A stretch of DNA of 64,000 nucleotides from Ancylonema sp. (taxonomy: Eukaryota), in assembly GCA_050230475.1 (NCBI GenBank), contig JBFLGF010000155.1, positions 1 to 64,000 of the forward strand. The letters run 5' to 3'. Shown here piece after piece: positions 12,544 to 48,110 of the stretch. How positions within the stretch are numbered: position 1 is the first letter of the stretch; the number at the start of each line of letters is the position of its first letter. The position numbers and the translations under genes were made by a program. Under the pieces are notes generated by a model. That model was not told where the DNA came from. It worked only from the letters and a program-made list of their open reading frames with translations, and did not search any database.

Positions 12544-14036
12544 CCGAACTCGCCATACATAATGACCCACAAATAATCATTGAAAGGGTGGGTCGGGTCA
12601 AATTGAATAATTCATTTTTTGGGGTTGGGTCACTCCATACTTTCCGAAATTCGGCGTAGTGGGTCAATATCGTAAAATCGGGTTTTTTCGTTATTTTGCT
12701 CAAAATACATACGTGGTTGGATCCCGATCGCCAAGAATCAATCGTGGTCCTTTATCGGCGGAATCTATTGTCATTGGTTTCCTTTTCACAAATTTAGGGG
12801 GGTAAATGGACATGTTGGGGAACAATTAAGGTGCATATTTTTCTTGCATTTTTGCGGCATGCACAAGCCAACATGATAAACAACATAGAGTTTCTATATT
12901 TTTTAAAACACAATACACCCTTCAAAATTCCGAAAAGTATGGAAAAATCGAAAACCCGAAAGAATGTGGATATTTCCACACACTCACTTACTAGTCACTC
13001 ACTCACTACACACTACTCACACTCTTTCACTATTTAATCTTCACTTCTCTTCCACTTCATGAGTCACTGTTCAGGTGTGAGAGTCGCAAGGCCGCAATCT
13101 AGAGCCGACAATGCACCCCACCGAGATAAGGCTTTTGAATGAAAGAGAGCGGATGAACGGCGAATAAATTTGAGATGAAGGAAAGTGAACGGATTCTAGA
13201 TTGTAAAGTGAACGGATGAACGGCGAATGAATTTGAGATGAAGGAAAGTGAACGAGTTTTAGAGTGTAAAGTGAACGGATGAACGGCAAATGGATTTGAG
13301 GTAACGGAAAGTGAACGGGTTTTAGAGTGTTAAGTGAACGGATGAACGACGAATGAATTTGAGGTGAAGGAAAGTGAACGGGTTTTTTAGTGTAAAGTGA
13401 ACGGATGAACGGCGAATAATTTGGAGGTAAAGGAAAGTGACCGGGTTTTAGAGTGTAAAGTCAACGGATGAACGGCGAATGAATTTGAGATAAAGGAAAG
13501 TGAACGGGTTTTAGAGTGTAAAGTCAACGGATGAACGGCAAATGAATTTGGGGTAAAGGAAAGTGGAAAGATTTTTAGTGTAAAGTGAACGGATGAACGG
13601 CAAATGAATTTGAGGTAAAGGAAAGTGAACGGGTTTTTCACTTCAAAGTGAATGGATGAACGTCGAATGAATTGGAGGTAAAGGAAAGTGAACGAGTTTT
13701 TTAGTGTAAAGTAAACGGATGAACGGCGACTAAATTTGAGATAAAGGAAAGTGAACGGATTTTTTAGTGGGAAGTGAACGGTAGAGTAAAAAAAACCTCG
13801 GGAATATCAGAAAAAAAAAGATGGCCGAAAGATAACCCCCCAAGGTTTACAGTGCCATAATAATAGTTCGGTACTCGTGCGGTACAAAATTGCGTGGGGT
13901 TTGAAGGTGGGTCATTTTTCTTGCCGGGTCAAGATATTTAAAATAAAAAAAACCCTGGTCATAATTGTGGGTCACGGGATAATAACTATATTTTGCCCGG
14001 GTCAAGTTGGTGGGTCATTATGTATTGCCACTATGG
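12544..14036 (+). mobile_element. Non-autonomous TIR element (family A) with internal ~60-bp tandem array
   Basis: Imperfect TIRs ta|CCGAACTCGCCATACATAATGACCC ... GGGTCATTATGTATTGCCACTATGG. Homologous to 46790-48110 and, inverted, to 14228-15460 and 35950-38073. Confidence 0.7.
13140..13781. repeat. ~60-bp tandem repeat, about 10-11 units
   Basis: Unit approx. AAGTGAACGGATGAACGGCGAATGAATTTGAGGTAAAGGAAAGTGAACGGGTTTTAGAGTGT. Confidence 0.9.
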
Positions 14037-14227: not shown

Positions 14228-15460
14228 CCGGAGTGGCCATACCTAATGACCCGGTTAAAAAAAAGAGGAATTAAATTTAGTGATGACCCACCAATTTGAC
14301 CCTGGAAAAATATATGTATTATCCTGTGACTTAAAATTATGACCCGGGTAAAATATATTTATTATACCGTGACCCGGGAGGCAAAATGACCCACCCCGAA
14401 CCAACGCGCAACTTTTACCGCACCGATAGTGTACTAATTGTGGTACCGTAAACACTGGGGGGGTAACTTTCGGCCATTTCTTTTTTTATTATTTTTCCGA
14501 TTTCTTTCTTCACTCCGTTCACTCTCCTCTCGCTCAAATGTATTCGTCGTTCATCCGTTCACTTAACAAAATCCGTTCACCTTCCTTCATCTCAAATTTA
14601 TTCGTTGTTCATCCGTTCACTTCACACAAAAAAAAACGTCCACTTTTTTTTTTCTCAAATTTATTCGCCGTTCCTCCGTTCACTTTCGTTCAAAAGCCTT
14701 ATTTCGGCGCGGTGCATTGTATTCTCAAGATTGCGGCCGCATACTGTAGCGGACTATGAGATCTGGACACGGGCTGTGAGTCCACAACCGTATTTTTAGA
14801 CCGTCGGTGATCGTCATGAAAAAAGGTCCGTTATACATATATATATTTCGGGAGATCCCCAAGAGATAAAGGCGAATGCATTGAAAGCAGTAATATGTGG
14901 ACAAAAAGCAGATCCCGACTGTAAGTTGGAGTATGATGCTAGGAATCAGCTAAAATTTCTCGACATCGAAATATTGAAACAAGGAGGAGGAGAAGAAATC
15001 CAAAAAAACGAAAGGGTTAGGTGAGGGTGCACGAGGTGAGGTTAGATGAGGGGGAGAGGGAGGGGGGAGGAGAGGAGGGTGGGGAGCACGATTGACACGT
15101 CTCGTTGATGGATTCAAAGCGGGAAGAGGGCGACGAGGACGAGAAGGATGAAGTGTAAAAGTAGTGAAGACTAGAGAGTGGTCGAGTATGAGTCGTGCGC
15201 ATTGAGTAGCGAGTACTAAGTGATTATGTGGAGATATCCGCATGCTTTTGGTTTTTCAAATTTCCATTACTTTTCAGAATTTTGAAAGGTGTATCGTGGT
15301 TTTAAAATATGGAAACTTTATGTCGTTTATTATGTTGGCTTGTGCATGGTGGAAAAATGTAAGAACATGTACAACTTTATTATTCCCGACGTGTCCGTTT
15401 CCCCCCTTATATCTACGAAAAGGAAAGCGATGACGATCGATGAGGCCGCTACCGTACCAA
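14228..15460 (-). mobile_element. Family A element, inverted and truncated copy
   Basis: Starts ta|CCGGAGTGGCCATACCTAATGACCC, contains reverse-complement tandem units (ttcatccgttcact) and a block homologous to 12760-13000. Confidence 0.65.
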
Positions 15461-15916
15461 CATTGAGTTCTAACCACATATGTTAGGGGCGGATGCAAAG
15501 GCGTCCCTAGCAAGCTAGTTGCAAAATGCACACAAGCAATATGATGGCGAAAGGCCGGATAGGACAAGATGGCGTCAGCCGGATGGAATGGTTGTGCTGT
15601 AATAATGACTCTAGAGGTATTCCTATGGACTAGATATAGGAAAGTCGACCCTAGTCGACTCTAGGATCAATGTGGGATAACTCACTCTGAATATTCTAAT
15701 GACACATCAAGTCTGGCTGAAGGCACAATTGCGTGAGCTAAGGACACATCAGAATACTCCCTAGGGGCCAGGCGGCCGCTAGGGACACAACTCTCACTAT
15801 ATAGGGGCAAAACTCGCTATAGGGAAATCTGAGCTAGTAGCGCTCTAGCGCTAAGTGTGGGGACCTCGCTAGGGAGCCCTAGTGATTGTAGCGAGGGTCC
15901 TAACAGTACCCCCCCC

Positions 15917-22640: not shown

Positions 22641-23336
22641 TCATTGCTCGTTCGGCCCCTACCTGATGCATGCTTTGCATTTATTCCAAGAGCTTTTGCG
22701 TTGCTTGTTCCATGATTCAAAAAGAATGGCGGCCGAAAAGGGTCTCTCACAAGATACACGAAAATGAAAAAACCCCAACTCAAAAGGTTAGGGGCGGAAT
22801 GCAATGAGCCCCTAGTAAATTATGTTGCACGTTCACACACAATAGAATGGCAAAACGAGTCAATGGATAGGATGGCGAAATGAGCCGATGGTAAAGATTT
22901 TGGTTGTAAGGTAGGCACGACAAATGCAATTACATGAGTTGATAGGAATGCTCTAGAGGCATTCCTATCGGCTAGATATAGGAAAGTTGACGTGCCAAAT
23001 TGAGTCGACATGGAACTTGCCGATGAAAATTCGAAAAACTTGATCTCGACAGATTTTGGAAGAATCTAGAAATTTTTCAAACTTTTTATTTATTTATTTT
23101 TTATTTTCTTTCTAAGACTTTTAACAAGGTTACATCTTTCTCACTCTATCATAATGAATGTTGCATGAAACTCCAATGCCAAGAATGAAAGTTGCAACAG
23201 ATGTAGTCCCCATTTGGGCTCACTAAAGTGATGTGTTGATTTAGTCTCAACCAGGGATGCACCGGGACGGCAAAAATGTATGCAAACGCGGACGTACGGA
23301 ATATGTCCGTACGGCAAAAGTATTGCAAACGTTTGT

Positions 23337-24453
23337 ACCCACCCATCTCGATTTGCTTTTTTTAGGTGATTTTTCGTGTGTTCCTTTCCCCTCCCTCCTC
23401 GATTTACTCCTTTTTATAAGGTCTTTCCCTCCCTCCCATCTCTGTTTACGATTTTTTTTTTTTTAAAGATTATTTAAGGTGGTTTTTTATTCCCTCCCAT
23501 CGAGATTTTCTTTTTAGGTGATCTTTTCTTGTGTTTCTTTATTCCCTCCCATCTCGATTTTTCTTTTTAGGTGATTTGTTCTTGTGTTTCTTTACCCTCC
23601 CTCCTATATTTACTCCTTTTTATAAGGTCTTTTCCTCCCTCCCATCTTATGTTTACGATTTTAAAGGTTATTTAAGGTGGTGTTGTTTTGTTTTTTATGA
23701 TTTTCGTGAAGAACAGCGGAAAAAGTTGTAAATCGGGAAAGGACAATTATAACCCACCCATCTCGATTTGCTTTTTTTAGGTGATTTTTCGTGTGTTCCT
23801 TTCCCCTACCTCCTCGATTTACTCCTTTTTATAAGGTCATTCCCTCCCTCCCATCTCTGTTTACGATTTTTTTTTTTTTTTAGATTATTTAAGGTGGTTT
23901 TTTATTCCCTCCCATCGAGATTTTCTTTTTAGGTGATCTTTTCTTGTGTTTCTTTATTCCCTCCCATCTCGATTTTTCTTTTTAGGTGATTTGTTCTTGT
24001 GTTTCTTTACCCTCCCTCCTATATTTACTCCTTTTTATAAGGTCTTTTCCTCCCTCCCATCTTATGTTTACGATTTTAAAGGTTATTTAAGGTGGTGTTG
24101 TTTTGTTTTTTATGATTTTCGTGAAGAACAGCGGAAAAAGTTGTAAATCGGGTTTGTCCCTCCCATCGAGATTTGCTTTTCTTTAGGTGATTTTTTCTTG
24201 TGTTTCTTTTACCTCCCTCCTATATTTACTCCTTTTTATAAGGTCTTTTCCTCCTCCCATCTAGATTTTTTTTTTTTTTTAGATTATTTAAGGTGGTTTT
24301 TTATTCCCTCCCATCGAGATTTTCTTTTTAGGTGATCTTTTCTTTCTTTCGTCCCTCCCATCGAGATTTGTTGTTTTTAGGTGATTTGTTCTTGTGTTTC
24401 TTTACCCTCCCTCCTTACTCCTTTTTATAATTTCCTCCCTCCCATCTCTGTTT
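23337..24453 (+). repeat. Left tandem array (415-bp unit, ~2.7 copies) of the pPolB cassette
   Basis: Near-identical units starting at 23337 and 23752 (identical ORFs at 23531 and 23946, offset 415), built from ccctcccatc..tttaggtgat subrepeats. Confidence 0.92.
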
Positions 24454-24496
24454 ACCCAATTAATACCCCAGCCTTTATATTATGTACCCATTTCTT

Positions 24497-27307
24497 TCAG
24501 ATCTCTATTGCACTGCCCATCGTCATCTTCTTTAACACAAAGTTTGAGTTAAGCAGGAGCTTTTTCCTTTGCATGTGCGAGCACAGTATGTACACACTGT
24601 CCCCAGCCGCCATCCTCCTGTAATACTCCTCTATCGTTACGCTTCTATTGCCCCTATCGTAATATTGGCTGTGCCTATCGTGTACGCTTGCATTTCTGTG
24701 ACACTCTATGTACCGCTGGTCCGTGATCACCTTGTCTTTTTGGGTCTCAATTCCCTTCATTCGCATCTTTATGGCTACCTCTTTGCCGTCCCTTAACACA
24801 TAGTTGACGTACACCTTTTTGTTGATATATATCCCGAACGGGCCGACATCCTCTTCTTGTGTCAGCTTATGTAGCTCTTCTTTGAACTGGCCAAAGGCAT
24901 TGCCGAATAGTTCAGGCCGTTCAGCCTTTACCCTGTCATATTCGGCCTTGCTGGTGAACAGGGAATCTGTGTCCATGCCATACCTATCGTTGAACAGCGT
25001 TATTAACTCGTACATCATAGACCTTGCGTAAGAGTATATCAGCACACCCCACACACTGGGCATCTTGTTATCAACATCCGATCTAGTGCCATGGCCTATC
25101 CAGTAATGTTGCTCTGACACAGGTTCAATTGTGTATCCTGGTATCACGTTGCTAATAAACTTTAAGGCGTCCGTGCTGCTGCATATTAGAGAGGTCAAAT
25201 TCTTGTGCAGTCTCTGTATCAGCTTGCCGCTCAGGCCGTTCATGCCTAGCTTGCACATGTTCCTAAGCGCTATGTTGTTGTCACCGCCAGCATCTATCCT
25301 GAGTTTCGTGTCTATCATAGGTTGCAGAAACTCACGGAATATCTCTTTCGACGATTCTTCCCAATAGAAGCCATTAGACACGCGGACATCGGCCCCGTAC
25401 TTGAGTAGCAGCAAGATGTCTACTGATGTCGCTATTATCTTTATTTCACCCGCGTAGTCCCAGTCTAGGGACAGGTCCGCTTCTCTTATAGGTAGTATGT
25501 TGGGCGAAGGCTGTTCCATCACGGTCACTTGGTACACACCTATGCGCCCGGGCACGGATATTGGTGTGGCTACAGGCTGCCCGATAGGGAACGCTTGTGA
25601 GCACAGCAAGTACGGGTACTCGCTTGTCATGTCAAGGCAGACTACATCTCTGTCAGCCACGACTTTCCCTAATTCAAATACCTGCGCACGCCCGCCTATC
25701 ACAGCCGAGCGTATCATAGCGTCGATGGCTACGTTTTTTACCACCGGCTGCTCTGTATCGTTGTGCAGGCAGAAATGTTTGTACATCATAGAAGACAGGG
25801 TGATGTGGCTCTCGATCTTGGCGCCTAGCATTTCATTTATGGCTTTTTTGACCTTGAAGAAAAGCTCGCCTGTGCACTCAGCATCTGTTTTGACGTAGGC
25901 CTCTATCTCTGCCCTGTGCTCTTGCAGGTGTGTCTGAAGCTTATTGTTAAGACGGGCATCCTGTGTTTTTTCATGATCAAGTTCCCTCTTCTGAAACTCA
26001 CAGCCGAAAGACAGACAGGCATCTCGCAAATTGGTCTGCACAAACCTTTGCACGTCCCGCACTATAAACCCCATGAGGTTCATGTTTATTATGTGCTGTC
26101 CGCGAATATACATACACAGCGTTGGATTTTTATCAACGCACAAAGCCTGTTTCAATAGTATGTGGTTATCAAACCTAGAATTGTTGAAGCCAACCAGATA
26201 CCTTTTGCGCTTCTAACACACTCTCTCTTGTCAGATAATCTATTATGTTGTGACGGGTCCTCTCAAATTTTATTGTGGTACAAACAAGCATTTTGCTTGT
26301 GCCATTTGCTGACAGCCCACGCGTAAGGGGGGGGTTACATTGCCATGGTGATCATAGGTAGTCTCATGATCAAAAAAATAATACAGGATGTTGTCATCCT
26401 CATCATCATCTTCCGTGAGCCCCTTGCCGGTCAGGTTGTAGGATACCTCCGCGTCTGTGAGCTTGTTCCTGTGGCCTACTAGCTCACCGGTGATCATGCA
26501 GTAGCAGCTTTCAGGCTTAAAAGCCTTAAGGATGACGCTGTAGTGTTTATCGTGGTACAGCAGCTTGTAATCAGAGTTGTCATCCCCGCACAACAGAGAT
26601 GGGCTGCATTCCATGACACGCAGTTCTGTGCCCCACTGGTTGGTATCGGTTTCTACCCTAGTAAACGCAACGTTGTACCTGTCCTCGTACACACCTACCT
26701 CGATGCCGTACATGGCTGCGATCTCATTGACATCGCGCATTCCCTGGACAGCCGTGATTGGCACTCGATTTCCCGACAGATACTCTAGGCACTTGTACAG
26801 GCATTCACCATCGGAACGGTGGCTTAGGACCCGATAGCACAGCGTATGTTTCACAGCCGCCTCGCCAGCACCCCCTTCCGTGTCCCTAGTAACTATGCGG
26901 AACCAGCTAGTATATATGTGCGAAAGCCTTAGCACAGTAGAAAAAGTGTCTGAGCCAAGAGAGTCGTGATCCCCTATCTCAAGGCTGTCGATGACAGCAT
27001 CTAAGTCGTCTAGGGACGGTGTGGGCAGACTAAGGTTTGTCACCGACCCGTTTCCCCAGATGACCCTGAACACTACGTTGACGATATCAACGAGCTCGTG
27101 CTGAATATCATGAACAGCGCGGCGCACAACCTCTAAGAACTCTCTGCGTGACAGATTGTCTGTGAAGTCGTCGCCTTCGTAAATATTGGCAATAAAGCCG
27201 CCGTAGTATGGGAAGCCATTACGCGTGAAACGGCTAGAATGGTCGCGGATAAAAAAACGAAGGGCGCGGTTTATGAACCTTTGGTACGGTGTAGGCAGAC
27301 AAGTCAT
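24497..27307 (-). pseudogene. Protein-primed family B DNA polymerase polyprotein (putative terminal protein + OTU-like protease + exonuclease + polymerase), disrupted at ~26195-26335
   Basis: ExoI FFDHET, ExoII LVGFNNSRFDNH, ExoIII YVKTD; IRSAVIGGR, DMTSEYPY (motif A), KLGMNGLSGK (B), YGMDTDSLF (C), KKVY, MKGI. ORFs 26270-27346 and 24497-26155 join across 2-3 lesions, including a G8 run at 26327-26334. Confidence 0.9.
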
Positions 27308-27644
27308 GATTGGCCTAAAAGGTATACAGGGCACACAATGATTCAATAATTGTTGATTCTTTTAAAATTATACACACACCGAACAACAGTGAAACCAATA
27401 ATCCTGACTTGGAGCATTACAGCAAAGTACACGCAACAACTAAGCAGTTGTCACTAGGGGTCGCATATAAACCTTCCTCTAATCATCATAAATTACCATT
27501 TTTCCATATCCTATATAATTTTATCAAAGATAATTGTTTTTCCGGTAAAAATTAATTTTATCTTCGCCTTACGGAGCCCAAGAACGAGTTATTGGGCTAA
27601 TTTCATCAAAGATAATTTCATCCGTGAGGTTGAAACTATTTAAC

Positions 27645-28336
27645 AATAATTGTCCTTTCCCGATTTACAACTTTTTCCGCTGTCTTCACGAAAATCATAA
27701 AAAAAAAACAAAACCACCTTAAATAACCATTAAAATCGTAAACAGAGATGGGAGGGAGGAAAAGACCTTATAAAAAGGAGTAAATAGAGGAGGGAGGGTA
27801 AAGAAACACAAGAACAAATCACCTAAAAAAAGAAAAATCTCGATGGGAGGGAATAAAGAAACACAAGAAAAAATCACCTAAAAAGAAAATCTCCGATGGG
27901 AGGGAATAAAAAACCACCTTAAATAATCTAAAAAAAAAAAAAAATCGTAAACAGAGATGGGAGGGAGGGAAAGACCTTATAAAAAGGAGTAAATCGAGGA
28001 GGGAGGGGAAAGGAACACACGAAAAATCACCCTAAAAAAAGCAAATCGAGATGGGTGGGTTATAATTGTCCTTTCCCGATTTACAACTTTTTCCGCTGTC
28101 TTCACGAAAATCATAAAAAACAAAACAAAACCACCTTAAATAACCTTTAAAATCGTAAAAGAGATGGGAGGGAGGAAAAGACCTTATAAAAAGGAGTAAA
28201 TAGAGGAGGGAGGGTAAAGAAACACAAGAACAAATCACCTAAAAAAAGAAAAATCTCGATGGGAGGGAATAAAGAAACACAAGAAAAAATCACCTAAAAA
28301 GAAAATCTCCGATGGGAGGGAATAAAAAACCACCTT
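27645..28336 (-). repeat. Right tandem array (same ~415-bp unit, inverted, ~1.7 copies)
   Basis: Reverse complement of the left array: aattgtcctttcccgatttacaac at ~27648 and ~28064 versus gttgtaaatcgggaaaggacaatt at ~23725. Confidence 0.92.
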
Positions 28337-31300
28337 TCATGATGAAGTCATCCAAGGGCCTCAAGATACGCGTGCAGCTTTCTCAGATGCTTGTGCACAG
28401 TATGATTGAAGAGGATTTTTCACTCGCAACAATAGAGTAAAATAATATATTCTTGGTTGGTATCCAACCCTCACGGATACAATACCTTGCGGAGCAAATT
28501 ATCTCCCCCCCCTCCGCGGGTGTTATTGTCGTCAGCAGAGTTAAGGATTGTTGCTCGATTGTTTTAGGATTGGGGTTGTTTTCCTTCTTCTGTTCCTTTA
28601 GGTTGGTACGATAACGTTGGTGTTGTACTAAGATGGGGTTCCCATCGTGCTTGAATAAAATGCGTCTTTCTCTTTTGCAACCGTGTGCATTTTGCAAACG
28701 TCCGCAAATTTATTCCTAGATAGGCCCGTTCCCGGATAAGCCGTAAACCCATTATATCCGGCGGACTCTCTATTTTGTCGTACCCCCATTTTGTCCCCGT
28801 CTGTTTGTTGTGTTCCCGTTTTTGTCATCATTTCATTTCCCCCATTTTTTCCTTGTTCCCGTCGTTTTGTCATGTAGCACGTCTCTATTATGTCGTGTCT
28901 TCCGTTCCACCATGGTATCTTGGCCCGTAGCCCGTCTCCCGTTCCATCATAGATTCTGTTTGTAGTGTGTGAGACAGAATCTTTAAGTTTTCTTAAATAT
29001 CTAGCATCTGACGGGTGAGCGTCGTTCACGACCGTGTCCCATCCCCCGATGCCGTCGATGAATCCCCTATTGTCAGTAGATTCTCTACACATTCACGACC
29101 GAATCTGCCTGTTTTTTTTTTTAAATCCGGAGTCATTAGTACGGACATGTACGGACATGTACGGACCATAAGGACGCAAACGTTTGCAAACGCAAACGTT
29201 TGCAAGCGCAAACGTTTGCATCCGTACAGTCCGTACCCGTTTGACGCATTTCACGTCCGTATTCCGGACGTTTGCGGGCAAATCCGTACGCCGTTTGCAT
29301 TTGCCAGGGCCGGCAGATTGCCCTCGGCCCCGTCCGGAAAACGTGCCGTACAGAAAACGGGCCCCGGCTCGGTGCATCACTGGTCTCAACTGATAGAAAT
29401 AGAGAATGGGTGACTACAACTATATGTAACTTATTAGTGGACTTCGCAAGAGTTAATTCTCATTGAAGAGTGAGATGCACTTAACGAGACACGTTGGGAG
29501 GTCTGATAAAAACAATTTATGGTTAATCAAGTAGCGCAGATGTTTAGATTTGCAACACGCGACAACTAGGCAAAAGACTGCAGGGCAAATAGCCGATAAA
29601 ATTCTACAGATGGTTGTAGGAAATTGAATAAAACTTCACGTTACGCAAATCGGGATAATTAACATTGGACAATGAATAGACGACTACTCAAAAACTAACT
29701 CAAATAGCGCTGCAATTCAATGAAAATAAGTTGCATGCAAATATACGCGGAACAACGCAATTTCAGTTCGTAACGGTATTTTTTACGTCAGCGAATCTGC
29801 GAGTAAAACAACTTGCCAGCGTGAGAGCGATAGCAAAGGTGAAACGAATTCTGGTCAAATGAAAATACAATCAACGTGTCAAACTAAACGTACGCAAAAT
29901 GTTTAGGATGCAGATAGTATGCAGGGAAGAGAAATTGCAAGGCAAATGCTCACGTGAGCGAAACGATGAACTGTTCGCGGAGTATACAGGATGCCAATGG
30001 CCGGAGGCGAGAATGAGGAACGCAAAAGAGATTTACATAGAGATTGCATAAAGATAAGAGTTGCAAAAAATATTGAAATTGTGAGAGCGTAAACTAATAG
30101 CGGAAGTTGGCACTTATGAAAGGAAATTTTCATTTTGAACAATCGACGCGGCGGTTCTAGAACTCGCTCGCGAAAAAATTAGAGATCGAAATCTGATCGA
30201 AGGGATGAGAATAAAAGTAATCAACTAGACTAAAGATAAGGTTCTATCAATCTAGGATATTCTGATAGCACGTGCGACATCTTAGCTACATGGATTGACT
30301 TGCTATTTTGACAGGCCAACTCGGCGCGCACTGAAATCAAATAATCTGATTGACGCGCTAGACAACGTGGACTTAACTTCTGGAAATTGCTATGCCGATG
30401 TTTCGTGGTGTACTCGATATATAAAAATGCTTAGATCTCACGTAACTTGTTGCAATCATTTTATAACAACAAAATCATTTATAACGATGAAAATCGACAA
30501 AGTTCGAAACATATGCCAAAAAGTAGTTTTCTTTCTAACGATCTCTTTCAGCATGACAAAGTCGGCCCTAGCCGACTCTAGAAACAATGTGGGACAACTC
30601 ACTCTGAATATACTTATTACACATCAAGTCTAGCTAAAGGCACAACTCCGGAGCTAAAGACACATTAGATTAGGGGCGAGGCGGCCGCTAGGGACACAAG
30701 AAGAGTCACTTTAAAGCATAGTAGCATCAAAACGCGTACGCGTTTTGCAAACGCAAAACGTCCAAACGTCAAAACGGCAATTTTAGACGTACGGACGCAA
30801 CACCACACGCTGGTCCAAACGCACCTATCCAAACGTCCGCACACTACCTTTTTTTTTTTTTTTTTTTTTTTTTCCCGGTTTTTTTTTCAATATATTTCCC
30901 ATTTTTTTTTTTTTTTTGTATTTTCCATTTCCGTAGCTTTTGCCATGAAAGTGAATATTTTCGAATTATTTCCCGATTCTTCTTTTCTTTTCTTTTCCAC
31001 ACAAAATAACATTAAAAAAAATCCTATATCGAGCGTATGTTGTACAAATATATTTACTTGAAAAGACAAATGTATTTTTTTGTACATGTGAACGATACTT
31101 TTTTTTGTTGAAATGAAAGACACTACTTGTGAACTTTCAAGTAAACACGTGCGGTAGAGAAAACATAGAAAACACACGAGTCCGTACGTGTTCATTGGTT
31201 TCTACACTTGGGAACTTAAAAATCCTGGCTTCACATCGATATTTCGCCGAAACTTCGTGTCTAAATTGGCCGAGCATAAAGTGACGCTTCCCAAATTACG

Positions 31301-35949: not shown

Positions 35950-38073
35950 TATATTTATTATCCCGTAACCCAAAAATATGACCCGGGTAAAAATAATTAT
36001 TACACTGTGACCCGGTTGGCAAAATGACCCACCCCAAAACAACACGTAATTTTCGCCGCATCAGTAACGTATTAATAAGATACTACAAATCTTGGGGGGG
36101 TAACTTTCGGCCGTCATTTTTTTTCTGATTTTCCGGGTTTTTGTATTTTTTGCATCACACCGATCACTTTAAAAATCCGTTCATTTTTCCTTTATCTCTA
36201 ATTTACCGTACGGGCAACTGGGCAACTTAAATGATTTTAAATTAATTATTGAAACCCGAAAGTAATCATTTAAATTAATTACTAAATGGTACAAAAAGGA
36301 TACTCAAAATCATTAATAAAACCCGTTTTAGGAATCATTTACGGGATATTCGGGGCCACCTGGATTCGACTCAATATGTGATGAAACGGGCTACACGACA
36401 AAGTAGGCACGTGCAAAAGGACACATTATTGGACGAGCGACATGTATGACGTCAGAAACTACGGACCGGGCCCTAAAGTCCCACGGTATGGGAAACACCA
36501 CCGATTCGACGCGCTAAACGACAAATTAAGACCAATCATAACAACAAAATTGTGGCCGGTCAAGATATCGCGACTAGAACGAGTGCTTGCCACGTGCACT
36601 TGTGACGTCAAAATGTACGGTAAATATGTAAGAATGACCCAGAGATAGACAAATCATTCGATTTTTAATTCCTAAACAAGGAAATCTTTTACGTACGCTG
36701 TTTATTCCTACAATCCGGAATCATCCCCAAACATATTGATAATAACTAACGGATTCATGGAATCATTACCAGAAATCATCGATAGTAACTAACGGAATCC
36801 CGGGATTTTGAGAAATCATTACGAAAACAATTAATTTTGGAAAAACAGAAATCATTTAGGGTGCCCAGTACGGTATTCGCCGTTCATCCGTTGACTTTAC
36901 AACAAAATGCCCGTTCACTTTCCTTAATCTCGTATTATTCGCCGTTCATCCGTTCAATTTACACTGAAAATTCCGTTCAATTTCCTTTATCTCAAAATTA
37001 TTCGCCGTTCATCCGTTCACTTTACACCACAAAAAAACACTTTCCTTAATCTCATATTATTCGCCGTTCACTTGTTCGCTTTAAAGGGAAAATCTAGTTT
37101 ACTTACCTTTATCTCAAATTTCTTCGCCGTTCATCCGACCACTTCACACTAAAGATCCCGTTCACTTTCCTTCATCTCAATTTTTTTCGCCGTTCATGCG
37201 TTCACTTTACACTAAATTTTTTGTTTACTTTTATTCAACTCAATTTCGTTCGCCAATCATCCGTTCACTTTACACCCTGAAACCCCCTCATTTTTATTTG
37301 ATCTCATTTTGTTTCGCCATTCATCCGTTCTCTTTACACTAGAAAATCCGTTTCCTTTTTCTTTATCTCAAACATATTTGCCGTGCATCCGTTCACTTTA
37401 CGCTGAAAATTCTGTTCACTTTCTCCTTTATTTAAAATTTATTCGCCGTTCATCCGTTCACTTTACACCAGGAAATCTGTTCATTTTCCTTTATCTCAAA
37501 TGTATTCGCCGAGCATCCGTTCACTTTACACTGAAAACTCCGTTCACTTTCCTATATCTCAAATTTATTTGCCGATCATCCGTCCACTTTCGTGCCAAAA
37601 AGCATTATCACGGTGCGGTGCGTTGTCGGCTCTAGATTGCGGCCCTCCGGAATGCAGTAGACTTTGAGCCTCGAACACATACTCTTAGTTCACAATTGTA
37701 TTTTCAGACTTTGTCGCTGATTGTCATGAAAAGATGTCCGTTATACAAATATATTATGAGAGATCCCAAATAGATACAGGCGAGTGCTTTGAAAGTAGCA
37801 AGTGAGTGTGTGGTGACATCCGCATGCTTTCGGTTTTTCGATTTCCCCACACTTTTCGGGATTTTGAGAGGTGTACTACGGTTCAAAAATTCTGGAAAGT
37901 CTATAGTGTTTATCATGTTGGCTTGTGTATGGTGCAGAAGTATAAGAAAAGGGAAGACCTTCATTATTCCCCGACATGTTCATCCCCCCCCCTAAATTTG
38001 TGAAAAGGAAACGAATGACGATCGATTAGGCCGCTACCGGACCACGATTGATCTTGGGCGACCGGGATCCAAC
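35950..38073 (-). mobile_element. Family A element, inverted, with 60-bp tandem array at ~36875-37590
   Basis: Reverse-complement match to 12715-13990 and 46955-48090. Confidence 0.7.
36206..36873. mobile_element. TA-targeting MITE nested in the tandem array
   Basis: ta|CCGTAC..TGGGCAACTTAAATGATTT ... AAATCATTTAGGGTGCCCAGTACGG|ta. Confidence 0.75.
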
Positions 38074-42087: not shown

Positions 42088-45000
42088 ATGGATTCTCCTC
42101 CTCGATCTGAACGCAGATTCTTGACAGGTTTTCCAGCTAGCGGTGTTAAATCTGCAGTTGGAATAGTTGGCGTTGCGGGCGTCATTTCAGTGGTCGTCAA
42201 TGCCGTAATTTATCGCAATTTCGCGAACACCAATCTGCATGACTTTGAAAGCCCCCTTGACGAGGACCAGGAAGTACTTGCCAAATTTGCAGTGGACAAA
42301 GATGGTAAGCTGAGCTACTTGTATCTGCACCTTTCTGAGACAGAGATTGGTGACCTGACCCTGAAATCATGCGTTGTCACACCGGCTTTTTTTTGTGTAG
42401 CTTGCCAATACTTTTTTAGGCTCACATGCGAGCATATAAGTTTTCTTGTCAGTTTGACCGGGCGACCATTCCTTCTTTATTATTTCGTGGTAAGTGCAGA
42501 TATTAGTTTCCTTCAGCTCGAGCTGGGATGCCGACCTGGTAGCGTCTGCTGCATTTGCATATATTTAAAGGGCTACTAGGGTCCTGCATACACGGACATA
42601 CTCTGCAGAGGGACATACTCTGAATGACATACTCTGCTCGACTGACATTGTTCCGCTGTAACTGCTGTCTTGTTATTGTCAGCCTTCGCCCTGCCTGCTT
42701 AGTAAAATCTAGCATTACTGAACTGGAGCACATCGATGTTGGCGGTGCAGTGGACGAGGGCGGCTTTTTTTTTGGGGTGGCGACGGCCCCAGCTCACGTG
42801 GAAGACAAGCTGAATGATGCTTGGCTCGAATTCGCACAGGAGACAGCTCCCAGCAAGCCCCAGCCGCCAATCAAGTATCCGCCCTATGGCTGTGGGGGAG
42901 AGGAGTTTACGGAGGATGAGGGGGCAACCTCGTCTGCAGGTGTGGAAGCCATAAAAGAAGAGGGGGGGAAAGAGGGAGAAGGAGGTGGGGAAGGGGGCCT
43001 TGGAGAGAGTGGGGTTCTCGTGAAGTCCGTTGACCTCAGCGAGGGCGAGAAGAATGGCAAGGAGGCGGGCGAGTGGCAAGTGGTGGAGCAGAACAAGGGA
43101 GGACGTGCAGGGGGGCAGGGGGAGGAGAAGCCCGTGGTAAAAGCCAAGCAAAAGGGGGGCAAGAAGTCAACCAGGGATCCAGTGTTGCAGTTCACAAACG
43201 GATTTAACATGGCGGACCGCATCGATCCCGCAAGTAATGCAAGGAGGCTTCTACGAAAAGTGAGTGGGAAAGTGCACGATGCCAAGCAGTGGACGGAGAA
43301 GAAGAAGGGGGGGGTGCAGGAGGAGGAGGCAGAGGATTATAGCCCCAATGTGGCGGCCTTCCATAACGTGCCTAACCCGTAAGTAGACCACCTGGCACAC
43401 TAAATGCTCAACATCATCTGTAACCTCGGGTCACCGACAAGACATACGTCTAAGTGACATTTCTGCCATCCGAATGGACTGAGCATGGCCCATCGGCTAC
43501 AATAATGTCGATGATGTCGATGGTAATAATGACGATACGATGATGATGATGCTGCCTACCATCACGGTGCCACCATGGTCACAGCAAGGGAGGATAGGGA
43601 TGGGAGGCTTGACAACTATCTGTGGGGTTCACCAGGCTGAGAGAGTAGATCGTTTTCACACATCCTGTGTGCACATCCGCTAGAACGCCTTAGGATCTCT
43701 TCTCGCATGGCGGCTGCGTATCATCTTAGGAAGTTCTGCAGAGACATTTTAAAATGTTTTATCCATGGAGAACATTCGGACACGATCTAGAAAATCTACT
43801 GTCCACATATACTAAAAATCTGTCAGAAGCATGTCTTCATTCTGCATGTGTTCATACCCTTTTTCCTCCTCGTCCACCCTCCCCCCTGCCGCAGTGAGAC
43901 GCGTCTGAAATTCTGGACCGAGCCTGAGACCGAGCTCCAGCTTGCGGCCGGTACGGGTAGCAGCGTGTTCCGCCTGGGGGTGGACTGGGGCCGGATCGTG
44001 ACCCAGGAGCCTGTGGACGGAATGCCGGCTGTGGTCGACTGGGATGCCGTGAAGCACTACCGATGGATTCTGGAACGAGTTCGTTCTCACAACATGGAGA
44101 TCATGCTATCGCTCTTTCACCACTCGCTGCCCAAGTGGGCGTCCCCCTATGGAGGATGGAAGGAGGAAAAAACCATCACCTACTTTGTCGAATTTGCGCG
44201 GTACCGGTTCCGACCACTCCTATCCCACATCCTGCATCCAGCTGCTCCCCCGCCTGACCCCCCCCCCCCCCCCTTCCTCCCCCCCCCAGTCTGTGCGCCC
44301 AAGAGTTTGGCGACCTTGTGAAGTGGTGGATTTCCTTCAACGAGCCTCACGTGTTTGCCATGCTAACCTACTGCGTGGGGGCGTGGCCGGGAGCCAGTCC
44401 CGACCTCATGGAACAGGTGTCCTCCGCACTGCCCAGGGGGGTGTTTGAGGTGGTCATGAAGGCCATGGCTGCCGCGCACAACCAGTCGTTTGATGTCCTC
44501 CATGAGGAGGCGGGGAAGAAGGGGCGGAAGACGAAAGTGGGTGTGTCTCACCACGTGTCCTACCAGCGTCCGTACGGACTGTTTGACACCCCCCTGGTGG
44601 CCATCAGCACAATGCTGACGAGATTCGCGTTTGTGGATGACGTGTGCGACAAGTGCGACTTCATCGGAGTGAACTACTACGGACAGGTAACGAGAGGGGG
44701 AGGAGATCACTTTGATAATGGGCAAGGGAGGCAAAGAGCATCCTCATACATTGATAATCCAAGGGTTGCAAGGATTGTGTTTTGCGGGTTTATATCGAAC
44801 GCAGGAAATGCGAAGTTGAAGTTCACCAAATTAGTCAAGACGATTTGCAGAATCTGAGCTTTTCGATTGTCCACCTTCCACTCTGAAGCGTGTTCTCTTG
44901 GCCACCTTGTCCTCCTCCCCCCCCCCCTCGCAGGAGTTTGTGTCTGGCCCCGGCCTGAAGCTGGTCCACAACGTCGAATTCTCCGACTCTGGTCGCGGTG

Positions 45001-46087
45001 TGTACCCCGACGGTCTCTTCCGCGCCCTCGTCATGGTCCACCAGCGGTACAACACTTCCAAGGGGCGCAGCGTGCCGTTCTACATCACGGAAAACGGGAG
45101 TGCAGACGGCACCGACCTCATCCGCCGCCCCTACATTCTGGAGCACCTTCTGGCAGTGCGGGCCGCCATGAACCTGGTGCGCCTTCACCCCAATTTCAAT
45201 TTCAATCTCAGTCTGCATACGGCTACGCCCTGGGGCAAGATGGTCACACTCTGTGTTTCTTTTCTCCCTTCCAGGGCGTCCCTGTGCAAGGCTACCTGTT
45301 CTGGACCACCTCCGACAACTGGGAGTGGGCGGACGGCTATGGCCCCAAGTTCGGCCTGGTGCACGTGGACCGGGAGAACAACCTGAAGCGCACCAAGCGA
45401 CCCTCCTACCACCTGTACACACAGGTAGCACTGGCAACCACCCTTTCACCTCATCGTGGGGACCTGGGATGTACAGCAATTGAGAGGAACCAAGTAGGGA
45501 CAGCATAGAAACCAGAGGAGAACTGGTAAGTATTGATCCGAAGTTTACGACTCTGCGTTTCCCATCCGTGTTCCCTTTTTCGTCAGATCTGCAAAACAGG
45601 GGAGGTGACAGCTGCCATGCGTGATGCTGAGTGGAAGACCCTTCAGGACGCAGCCGAGGCCGGCAAAAAGCGGCCCTTCTTCCGAGCTGTGGCCAACGGG
45701 GTCATGTTCGCAGGTGGGAACCAGGGGTCAACCCCCCCCTACCTGTACCCCTTGCGCTCTCTTTCCAGGCAGGAAGTAACAAGTTTTGTGTCTTCCCATG
45801 CAGGTGGGCTGGACACTCCCATAGACCGCCCGTTGATAAAACGAGATTGGCGATTCGGGCATTACGAAACCGAAGGCCTTCAAGACCCAATCTCCAAACT
45901 CGTACGCCTGGCCATCACCATTTGCACCTTCGGACTACTGAAACGCAAGGGCAAAAAGGGCGGGAAGAAGTCGGAGAAGGACCTGAAGACTATCTCGAGT
46001 GGTGGTCATCGGGTGCCCTCGGGAGCCCCCTCTGGTGATGGGAAACTGGACCAAGATCTGGTCATAGCTCTAGCCCTCGAAAGATAG
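42088..46087 (+). CDS. SFR2: SFR2-like GH1 galactolipid:galactolipid galactosyltransferase, 8 exons: 42088-42304, 42751-43378, 43895-44200, 44290-44686, 44934-45176, 45275-45424, 45587-45713, 45804-46087
   Basis: N-terminal hydrophobic anchor; FESPLDED; FFFGVATAPAHVEDKLNDAWLEFA; RLKFW; FRLGVDWGRI; catalytic SFNEP and ITENG; WTTSDNWEWADGYGPKFGL; RDWRFGHY..GLQDP. Confidence 0.93.
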
Positions 46088-46789: not shown

Positions 46790-48110
46790 CCGTACTGGCC
46801 ATACATAATGACCCGTAAATAAGTATTGAAAGGGTGGGTCGGGTCAAATTAAATAATTCATTTTTTGGGATCACGCCATAAATTCTGAAATTCGGCGTAG
46901 TGGGTTAACATCGTAAAATCCATTCTATTCGTTTTTTTTTGCTCAAAATACATATGTGGTTGGATCCCGATCGCTAAGAATCTATCGTGGTCTCGTAGTG
47001 GCGTAAACGATCGTCATTGGTTTCCTTTTCACAAATTGAGGGGGGGAAATGGACATGTTGGGGAACAGTTAAGGTGCATATTTTTCTTACAGTTTTGCAC
47101 CATGCACAAGCCAATATGATAAACAACAGAGGGTTTCCAGATTTTTTAAACCACCCTTCAAAATTCCGAAAAGTATGGAAAAATCGAAAAACCGAAAGAA
47201 TGTGGATATCTCCACTCACTCACTTACTAGTCACTACTCACTACACACTACTCATACTCTATAACTATTTACTTGTCACTACTCTTCCACTTCATGAGTC
47301 AGTGTTCAGGTCTCAAAATCTGTTGCAATCTGCAAGGCCGCAATCTAAAGCCGACAATGCTCCCCACCGAGATAAGGCTGTTGAACGAAAGTGAACGGAT
47401 GAACGGCAAATAAAATTGAGATGAAAGAAAGTGATCGGGTTTTGGAGTGTAAAGTGAACGGATGAACGGCGAATGAATTTGAGATAAAGGAAAGTGAACG
47501 ATCTCTCGGAATCTCTCGGGATCTCTCGGAATATTTGTATAACGGACCTAATTGCATGACGATCCGCGACAAAGTCTAACAATATAGTTGTAGATGAAAA
47601 GTATGTGTTCACGTCTCACAGTCTGGTGCAATCTCCAGAGCCGCAATCTAGAGCCAACAACGCACCGCACCGAGATAAGGCTTTCGAACGAAAGTGAGCG
47701 GCGAACGGCGAATAAATTTGAGATCATGGACAGTGAACGGATTTTTCAATGTAAAGTGAACGGATGGATGACTTGCGAAAAAAAACGAGAGAAGGGAAAG
47801 GGAACGGAATTTTTATGAAAAGTGAACGGATAAACGGCGAATAAATTTGAGATATAGAAAGTGAACGGAATTTTAAGTGGATACTGAACGGCGTAGTGAA
47901 AAAAAATCGGAAAAACCATTAAAAATTTGACGGCCGAAAGTTACCCCCCCATGGTTTTTATACGGCACTAGTGCGGTTGAATCACGCGTTGTTTTGGGGT
48001 GGGTCATTTTGCTTGCCGGGTCACGGTATAGTTTTTTTTTTAACCCGGGTCATAATTTTGGGTCACGGGATAATTAATATATGTTGCCCGGGTCAATTTG
48101 GTGGGTCACC
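46790..48110 (+). mobile_element. Family A element with interrupted 60-bp array
   Basis: ta|CCGTACTGGCCATACATAATGACCC start; colinear with 12544-14020. Confidence 0.72.

Follow-up and report, generated by a model that had tools for sequence, protein, structure and literature searches.

A one-gene protein-primed polymerase unit inside a hAT-like element of a likely streptophyte alga: a possible decayed copy of a minimal linear plasmid

The 64-kb stretch of DNA analysed here (the window) contains a unit of about 5 kb, consisting of a single 2.8-kb gene for a family-B DNA polymerase of the protein-primed type (pPolB) bracketed by inverted arrays of a 415-bp repeat and nested within a 6.1-kb hAT-like element. 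On balance, if only just, we consider it probable that this copy, now decayed, derives from a minimal linear plasmid of the lineage of virus-like elements (VLEs), which a non-autonomous hAT-type transposon captured in a streptophyte algal nuclear genome. A green alga allied to the land plants is the likely host, which supports the green-plant origin proposed in a sequence-only reading of the same DNA. The unit is laid out as follows.

23337..23751, plus strand: outer 415-bp unit of the left arm, starting ACCCACCC, a 4-nt reiteration
23752..24152, plus strand: second unit of the left arm, sharing 397 of 401 nt with the outer left unit
24153..24455, plus strand: degenerate inner partial unit of the left arm
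24497..27307, minus strand: pPolB polyprotein gene (ATG at 27307, stop at 24497-24499; about 935 codons in two long frames)
27308..27645, minus strand: unique region upstream of the gene (34% GC), which likely holds promoter and leader
27646..28061, minus strand: inner full unit of the right arm (402 matches, 9 mismatches and 6 gap openings against the outer left unit)
28062..28336, minus strand: outer unit of the right arm, truncated to 275 nt (273 matches to the inner right unit in 274 aligned nt)

The left arm (23337-24455) holds 2.7 copies of the 415-bp unit and the right arm (27646-28336) 1.7 copies in inverted orientation. Left and right arms are about 96-98% identical (about 96% over 684 nt) and units are 99% alike inside one arm and 97-98% between arms, with nested 52-, 206- and 415-bp repeats making up both. 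Terminal inverted repeats, a feature of VLEs and linear plasmids, are thus present as the arms, and ACCCACCC at the start of the left one is possibly the original terminus of the element. The inverted arrays described in the sequence-only reading are both there, but the right one is cut short some 140 nt into the outer one of its units. The non-arm core measures 3.19 kb, and outside the polymerase gene no ATG-started frame is longer than 45 codons: the unit contains no second gene, and none for a capsid, packaging ATPase or integrase, in keeping with the earlier statement that there was no room for one.

The C-terminal frame of the gene matches Pfam DNA_pol_B_2 (E 3e-29), confirming the earlier identification of the unit as pPolB between inverted arrays, and phi29 polymerase is the only PDB match of the alignment profile at E <0.001. 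Exonuclease and polymerase motifs of the protein-primed family-B type are present, and phi29 polymerase is also what a structure model of P0028, an intact relative of 933 residues, matches (E 2e-22). Over its full length this relative aligns with the window gene (94% identity in the N-terminal part, 93% in the C-terminal). The window gene, with its two long minus-strand frames, is broken by five frame shifts, all within 26330-26092. Such clustering in about 240 bp of 2,810 has a chance probability of about 3e-4. An intron as the cause of the breaks can be rejected, since intact relatives have coding sequence homologous to the broken stretch. The window copy is either a pseudogene or locally mis-assembled. 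Unbroken relatives exist (P0028 and P0003 at 93-95% identity, P0004 at 71%), which indicates that the lineage is under selection, and another close relative, found in a public run, has its breaks in the region where the window gene has them.

Before the exonuclease, two further domains are predicted.

26876..27229, minus strand: predicted terminal-protein (TP, primer) domain, residues about 27-144, little-finger-like fold
26519..26848, minus strand: predicted vOTU cysteine protease domain, residues about 154-263

The TP region resembles the little-finger domain of Y-family polymerases in 5 of 50 VIA rows (Z 4.1-5.1), and 8 of 10 Atlas structure rows align it to IMS_C, all under the naming bar; a little-finger-like fold is given as the TP signature in section 8 of PMC11071308. 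For the vOTU region, 22 of 50 VIA rows are titled OTU-type deubiquitinases (Z 4.0-5.6), and the candidate catalytic residues Cys169 and His255 are invariant in all 29 aligned sequences. All Z-scores for the two regions lie below 8. The predicted order terminal protein-vOTU-exonuclease-polymerase, in agreement with the primer, protease and polymerase envisaged previously, is therefore supported by fold and by the invariant Cys and His, with modest scores for TP and vOTU. Atlas feature matches to Parabasalia clusters (0.87-0.90) serve as leads only.

TATA-like words occur at -65 and -210 upstream of the gene. Two words resembling plant site II are also found there and are too weak for use. The ATNTGA promoter is not found within 150 nt of the ATG, which says little because two of the three clade pPolB genes checked (see below) also lack it.

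The sequence-only reading had assumed direct integration of the replicon. This does not hold, since the unit is the cargo of an element that had been overlooked (23252-29382), with 13-bp terminal inverted repeats (TIRs) and a perfect 8-bp target-site duplication (TSD).

23244..23251, no strand: left copy of the TSD, 8 bp (GTCTCAAC)
23252..23336, plus strand: left end of the carrier, made up of a 13-bp TIR and a 72-bp stretch of subterminal motifs; the right subterminal region is longer
28337..29382, no strand: remainder of the carrier, about 800 bp followed by a motif cluster and the right TIR
29383..29390, no strand: right copy of the TSD, 8 bp

These ends were the best among 63 TSD-bracketed end pairs, with a TIR match of 12/13 versus 7/13 for the next, and in the 64 kb the TIR pattern occurs only at 23252 and 29382. 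The TIR presumably resembles that of maize Ac. The right subterminal motif cluster lies at about 29139-29370, and an empty paralogous site with a single copy of the TSD sequence is seen at about 1430-1480 of the window. The 800 bp or so of remaining carrier DNA has no Pfam match in any of its six frames, and neither a cognate transposase nor a sister copy of the carrier was found in the 64-kb window. Short TIRs and an 8-bp TSD are those of a non-autonomous hAT element, 8 nt being the TSD length stated for hAT (PMC8903248). With the unit nested in a TIR- and TSD-bounded carrier whose empty site survives, an integrase is therefore not needed.

The sequence-only reading had called for a pPolB phylogeny against reference groups. 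Our tree, of 46 rows and rooted at the midpoint, provides the placement but is without reference Polinton, adenovirus or yeast plasmid enzymes. A clade of 24 with 100/100 support unites the window enzyme with four Coemansia enzymes and the locus L002, and the four loci with matches to a Sputnik-type capsid or A32 ATPase fall outside it, which favours the plasmid-like affinity suggested earlier over a Polinton or Polinton-like virus (PLV) one. L002 encodes pPolB, an RNA polymerase subunit and a kinase, and has a 13-bp tandem array running from just past pPolB to the contig end. All seven clade loci whose DNA was examined carry further ORFs beside pPolB (ferroportin, Sel1 repeats, unknowns), so that none shows the one-gene layout. 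A Pfam scan of the main non-polymerase ORFs of these loci, short overlapping ones left out, weakly suggests a clade without capsid genes, given that Pfam misses many PLV capsids and six of the seven contigs are under 7 kb.

All nine records of close relatives are on contigs of 0.7-4.3 kb and none is on a longer one, most metagenome contigs being short anyway. Compared with the 3.19-kb core, such lengths are expected if the repeats end the molecule or break assembly, and they suggest that the intact relatives may share the one-gene layout and arms. Searching 2.9 million viral contigs with P0028 gave no close relative, an alignment search six distant loci, and the arm motif had no matches among viral contigs. 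Of four loci from prokaryote genomes, three are other genes that match weakly and one is a pPolB contig of 2.7 kb from a MAG, at 30%; bacterial plasmids gave no match. Closely similar DNA is present in sediment metagenomes of two studies (0.56-0.67 of words), and the best public run contains 0.69 of words. Glacier and ice runs have word shares of 0.06-0.41, two of them being RNA runs and one a guessed RNA run, and are evidence of neither habitat nor expression.

No report of such an element in algae or plants was found in the open-access literature, although Figs 2 and 4 of Heneghan, Salzberg and Wolfe 2026 (PMC13348850) may draw polymerase-only plasmids. That paper already describes the enzyme lineage of the window element, as a feature of fungi, and reports plasmid contigs down to 3.9 kb from them. 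The element is therefore less isolated than first thought.

We infer every property of the free element. From homology, its single gene would give one polyprotein, whose TP domain would take the first nucleotide at each DNA end and whose vOTU domain would then cut the TP loose, while the exonuclease-polymerase would copy all of the ~5 kb by strand displacement, starting at both ends. Jump-back initiation would be in keeping with the ACCC-ACCC with which the left arm begins. The tandem units may be stacked copies of an end or origin, each arm being lengthened and homogenised separately by recombination. Having no RNA polymerase gene, the element would need host transcription or a helper plasmid, of which we weakly favour transcription by the host nucleus. 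Entry into the chromosome was likely by patching of the DNA into the hAT-like element during break repair, without an integrase; this may have trimmed the right arm and probably also the left subterminal region of the carrier. Against a captured linear plasmid, only a single copy is seen, and a broken one; equally, the arms are non-identical and one is truncated, where a working panhandle end would need identical arms. The long stem of the window lineage in the tree (0.83) counts against it too. A bolder version, which we hold only tentatively and regard as rather doubtful, is of a self-replicating single-gene streptophyte plasmid of the fungal VLE lineage, transcribed by the nucleus, with telomere-like arms as stacked origins and riding hAT into chromosomes. 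It would be about the smallest autonomous dsDNA replicon of eukaryotes and the first of its lineage in green plants.

An unlikely alternative, though the one that survives best, is that a helper-dependent cytosolic VLE of an alga-associated fungus, chytrid or amoeba had one molecule patched into an algal transposon and never replicated in the alga. The named clade members are indeed Kickxellales fungi, Rhizopus and an amoeba transcriptome, none of them green; up to 44 polymerase-bearing plasmid contigs occur per fungal isolate, some with broken genes (PMC13348850), and the sediment matches would fit. However, the window gene (GC 47-51%, GC3 0.59-0.60) exceeds all seven clade loci (GC 31-42%, GC3 0.29-0.52), and yeast VLEs are over 75% AT (PMC4431711). 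A long stem (0.83) separates the window enzyme from every fungal member, and the second relative broken in the same region hints at several decaying copies. Foldback-type transposons have long TIRs made of tandem repeats, and the arms could belong to one of these in the host that captured pPolB, in which case a one-gene replicon never existed. The nested repeats of the arms, the repeat-rich window and the transposon capture already evident at the locus are compatible with this, but neither the rest of the 64-kb window nor any of 76 retrieved loci matches the 415-bp unit, no target duplication directly flanks the arms, and L002, too, bears an array at the contig end next to pPolB, making such an origin improbable. 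About as improbable is an internal-deletion derivative of a PLV or virophage, with nothing but the ends and the polymerase retained. Polintons and mavirus have the same four-domain polyprotein (PMC11071308), among viral folds mavirus pPolB matches the N-terminal part best (E 1e-5), PLV capsid groups are reported from streptophyte genomes (PMC10120064), and relatives at 25-31% adjoin capsid and ATPase genes; those loci, however, are the ones outside the 100/100 clade, and neither the viral contigs nor any contig above 4.3 kb supplied a close relative. Finally, a contaminant plasmid artefactually joined to algal DNA might explain five breaks so close together, as a local polishing fault would give, and the incomplete coverage of words in the best run, but is very improbable, since a chimera would not create a TIR pair, a perfect TSD and an empty site in the same window.

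A captured plasmid of the VLE lineage in a relative of green plants, if true, would widen the host range across kingdoms, and its nesting in a hAT-like element shows one way for linear replicons that lack an integrase to become heritable. With the intact P0028, the proposed, unproven self-cleavage of TP by vOTU can be tested directly. Orthogonal replication systems have been built on yeast pGKL1, and a one-gene replicon working in plant-type cells, if true, would be a candidate for this use. As to what maintains polymerase-only plasmids, an open question in PMC13348850, pure selfish replication would suffice.

The closest known systems are the VLEs of Coemansia and Cunninghamella (PMC13348850), the enzymes of the listed Coemansia strains being in the same pPolB clade; its supplement gives 17 plasmid polymerases for C. 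reversa NRRL 1564 and six each for C. umbellata and Coemansia RSA 1358. VLEs of non-Dikarya fungi are likewise capsid-less, TIR-bounded linear DNA with TP fused to the polymerase, and these fungi carry small plasmids in large numbers, every one of them with a polymerase of its own; the Coemansia polymerases form five groups. Their hosts are fungi rather than a streptophyte, 'plant' and 'algae' being absent from the text of that paper, whereas the window element is a chromosomal copy with kilobase tandem arms, no cargo gene, no helper genes seen and a GC content above that of the soil loci. Yeast pGKL1 and pGKL2 share TP-vOTU-Exo-Pol with conserved Cys and His (PMC11071308) but are multi-gene, very AT-rich plasmids of 9 and 13 kb, with ATNTGA promoters 20-40 nt upstream of their genes (PMC6211774). 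Polintons/Mavericks, PLVs and virophages have a four-domain pPolB and terminal inverted repeats too, but measure 14-40 kb against 5 kb here and have the capsid, ATPase and integrase genes that the window unit lacks. Mitochondrial linear plasmids are pPolB plasmids in the green lineage, with a fungal origin argued in PMC10583447; those of plants and fungi are without vOTU (PMC11071308), in contrast to the vOTU predicted here. Pack-hAT elements (PMC8903248) resemble the carrier in being non-autonomous, with short TIRs, an 8-bp TSD and captured internal DNA, but their cargo is host gene fragments, whereas that of the window carrier, seen in one copy, is a whole foreign replicon-like unit.

The unit at 23337-28336 consists of a minus-strand gene for a protein-primed DNA polymerase (pPolB) set between inverted arms of a 415-bp repeat:

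23337-24455, left arm, 2.7 copies of the 415-bp unit
26212-24497, minus strand, second pPolB frame, matching Pfam DNA_pol_B_2
27361-26270, minus strand, first pPolB frame
27646-28336, right arm, 1.7 copies of the 415-bp unit, inverted with respect to the left

The two left-arm units compared disagree at 4 of 401 positions and the two right-arm units at 1 of 274, while each comparison between arms shows 6-9 mismatches and 5-6 gap openings. When the unit was scanned no second gene was apparent, the longest other ATG frame having 45 codons. The sequence-only reading was accurate in this, as in its description of the gene and the inverted arrays, but the gene is broken by five frame shifts. These lie within 26330-26092, after which the starting frame is regained; the computed chance of all five clustering in 240 bp is about 3e-4. 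Combined, the two frames align end to end with the intact 933-residue relative P0028, from an ATG at 27307 to the stop at 24497 (94% and 93% identity).

An alignment of 20 relatives preserves the exonuclease and polymerase motifs. A model of P0028 (pLDDT 81) finds its best match among solved structures in the phi29 polymerase and, among viral models, matches bidnavirus, adenovirus and tectivirus polymerases. A model of the first 303 residues of the window's own pPolB shows two domains. For residues 154-263, OTU-type proteases account for 22 of the top 50 structure-search rows (Z 4.0-5.6); all 29 sequences keep Cys169 and His255 unchanged. For residues 27-144, the little-finger domain of Y-family polymerases appears in five of 50 rows (Z 4.1-5.1) and eight of ten Atlas rows; the single top row, at Z 5.9, belongs to an unrelated S6 fold. 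A little-finger likeness is given for PRD1-type terminal proteins in passages of Krupovic et al. (PMC11071308). Though each score is modest, order and position agree, so that the prediction of a terminal protein domain followed by an OTU-type protease domain is persuasive.

The unit is enclosed by a hAT-like carrier (23252-29382). Its 13-bp inverted repeats, at 23252 and 29382, agree at 12 of 13 positions, are flanked by a perfect 8-bp duplication and have no further occurrence in the 64-kb window; of 63 candidate end pairs carrying an 8-bp duplication in the 1.5 kb to either side, the runner-up reaches 7 of 13. An 8-nt duplication marks hAT elements (passages of PMC8903248). The flanking repeat has a paralogue, near 1430-1480, in which the flanks are joined with a single octamer copy, as an empty site. 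The unit starts 85 bp inside the left carrier end and lies about 1 kb from the right, where a six-frame Pfam scan gave no match. The sequence-only reading, which took the unit for an integrated linear plasmid or satellite replicon, missed the terminal repeats and duplication enclosing it; the arms have no contact with ordinary host DNA. The unit itself has no flanking duplication and a truncated right arm, consistent with capture by the carrier during break repair.

Elsewhere in the window lie inverted pairs of 63-bp tandem arrays (13142-13781, 14514-14738, 36874-37590 and 47297-47905; for example, 13090-13260 pairs with 14568-14738), which may represent a further TIR or foldback transposon family. 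A dispersed 93-bp repeat has four copies, 63-87% alike, at 15641, 30558, 38980 and 62954.

Among the pPolB relatives (25 matches plus the best 150 of 1,163 representatives), there is a tight group at 70-98%, below which nothing appears until a Rhizopus fragment of 260 residues at 47%, and then 41%. Nine records make up the tight group, on contigs of 699-4,262 bp. Three members are unbroken and full or nearly full length; P0031 and P0030, a pair, are broken where the window's gene is, though not identically. In a 108-row tree, seven of 66 metagenome loci fall in the window's clade. A midpoint-rooted tree of 46 rows chosen from these relatives and loci, with no yeast plasmid, Polinton or adenovirus reference among them, gives a 100/100 clade of 24 in which the window enzyme is joined by metagenome locus L002 and four Coemansia enzymes. 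In a quick tree of 50 rows the clade also takes in Kickxella, Rhizopus and a transcript from an amoeba. P0131, from a Paradermamoeba transcriptome, is a full-length clade member, suggesting that the lineage occurs also in amoebae or their food organisms.

Heneghan et al. 2026 (PMC13348850) assign the Coemansia polymerases to free, high-copy linear plasmids and list three of the Coemansia strains among our matches. L002:1-13493 encodes pPolB, an Rpb2-like RNA polymerase subunit, a kinase and two or three PD-(D/E)XK-like ORFs, and ends in a 1-kb tandem array of a 13-bp repeat. It is likely a helper-type cytosolic linear plasmid (virus-like element, VLE) with a telomere-like end, and looks like the Coemansia-type plasmids they describe. 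The one-gene arrangement proposed from sequence alone was found in none of the seven clade loci read. Other ORFs adjoin pPolB in all seven, so the layout is seen only in the window, which counts against a minimal replicon. At L001:4029-5285 and L003:2296-2805, a ferroportin gene and a Sel1-repeat gene directly adjoin intact clade pPolBs, either as plasmid cargo or through insertion into fungal chromosomes. Three metagenome contigs of ~5 kb (L008:1-5397, L009:1-5295 and L012:1-4862) each encode a pPolB of 980-990 aa along with two to four small ORFs, and have inverted repeats at either contig end; they appear to be small linear replicons in complete form, belonging to a separate branch of pPolB.

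The neighbouring genes in the window include RuvB-like, DNL zinc-finger and glycosyl hydrolase 1 genes. The last (43791-46087) resembles SFR2, a chloroplast galactolipid galactosyltransferase that is a freezing-tolerance enzyme in land plants. One of its exons matches streptophyte SFR2 at 54-71% (57 matches, none close), the named matches being from land plants and streptophyte algae. From these sequences the host is likely a streptophyte alga.

By a slight balance of probability, we read the unit as a minimal linear replicon that belongs to the VLE polymerase lineage, was captured by the hAT-like element and is now decaying. The replicon would have existed in a free state: its arms would be stacked origins, the ACCC-ACCC present in the arm would be its terminus, and transcription would take place in the nucleus; protein priming, self-cleavage and strand displacement by the pPolB polyprotein would be as in the family. 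The yeast plasmid promoter ATNTGA (passages of PMC6211774) was not found for the window's pPolB, a weak point since two of three relatives checked also lack it. The main rival, a one-off import from a fungus or protist associated with the host, has perhaps a one-in-five claim. The window's gene has 47-51% GC and GC3 of 0.59-0.60, the seven clade loci 31-42% and 0.29-0.52, and three host exons GC3 of 0.82, 0.79 and 0.49. Capture of the pPolB gene by a foldback transposon is improbable. A Polinton-like virus (PLV) reduced by deletion is slightly less probable still, and the loci bearing a capsid of Sputnik type (L032) or an A32 ATPase (L017, L018, L019) fall outside the window's clade. An artefact is very improbable. 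Twenty public runs from eight studies contain part of the core, seven with at least half of its words; they name no host.

The streptophyte host, bare one-gene layout, tandem arms and transposon carriage were not found in the literature searched, and the passages of PMC10120064, bioRxiv 2025.04.19.649669 and PMC13215967 describe no one-gene transposon-borne pPolB element. The enzyme type and pPolB clade are already known. Those same passages report, from streptophytes, capsid groups of PLVs as well as other viral regions of dsDNA type (PMC10120064; bioRxiv 2025.04.19.649669) and, from fungi, a pPolB lineage without capsid (PMC13215967).
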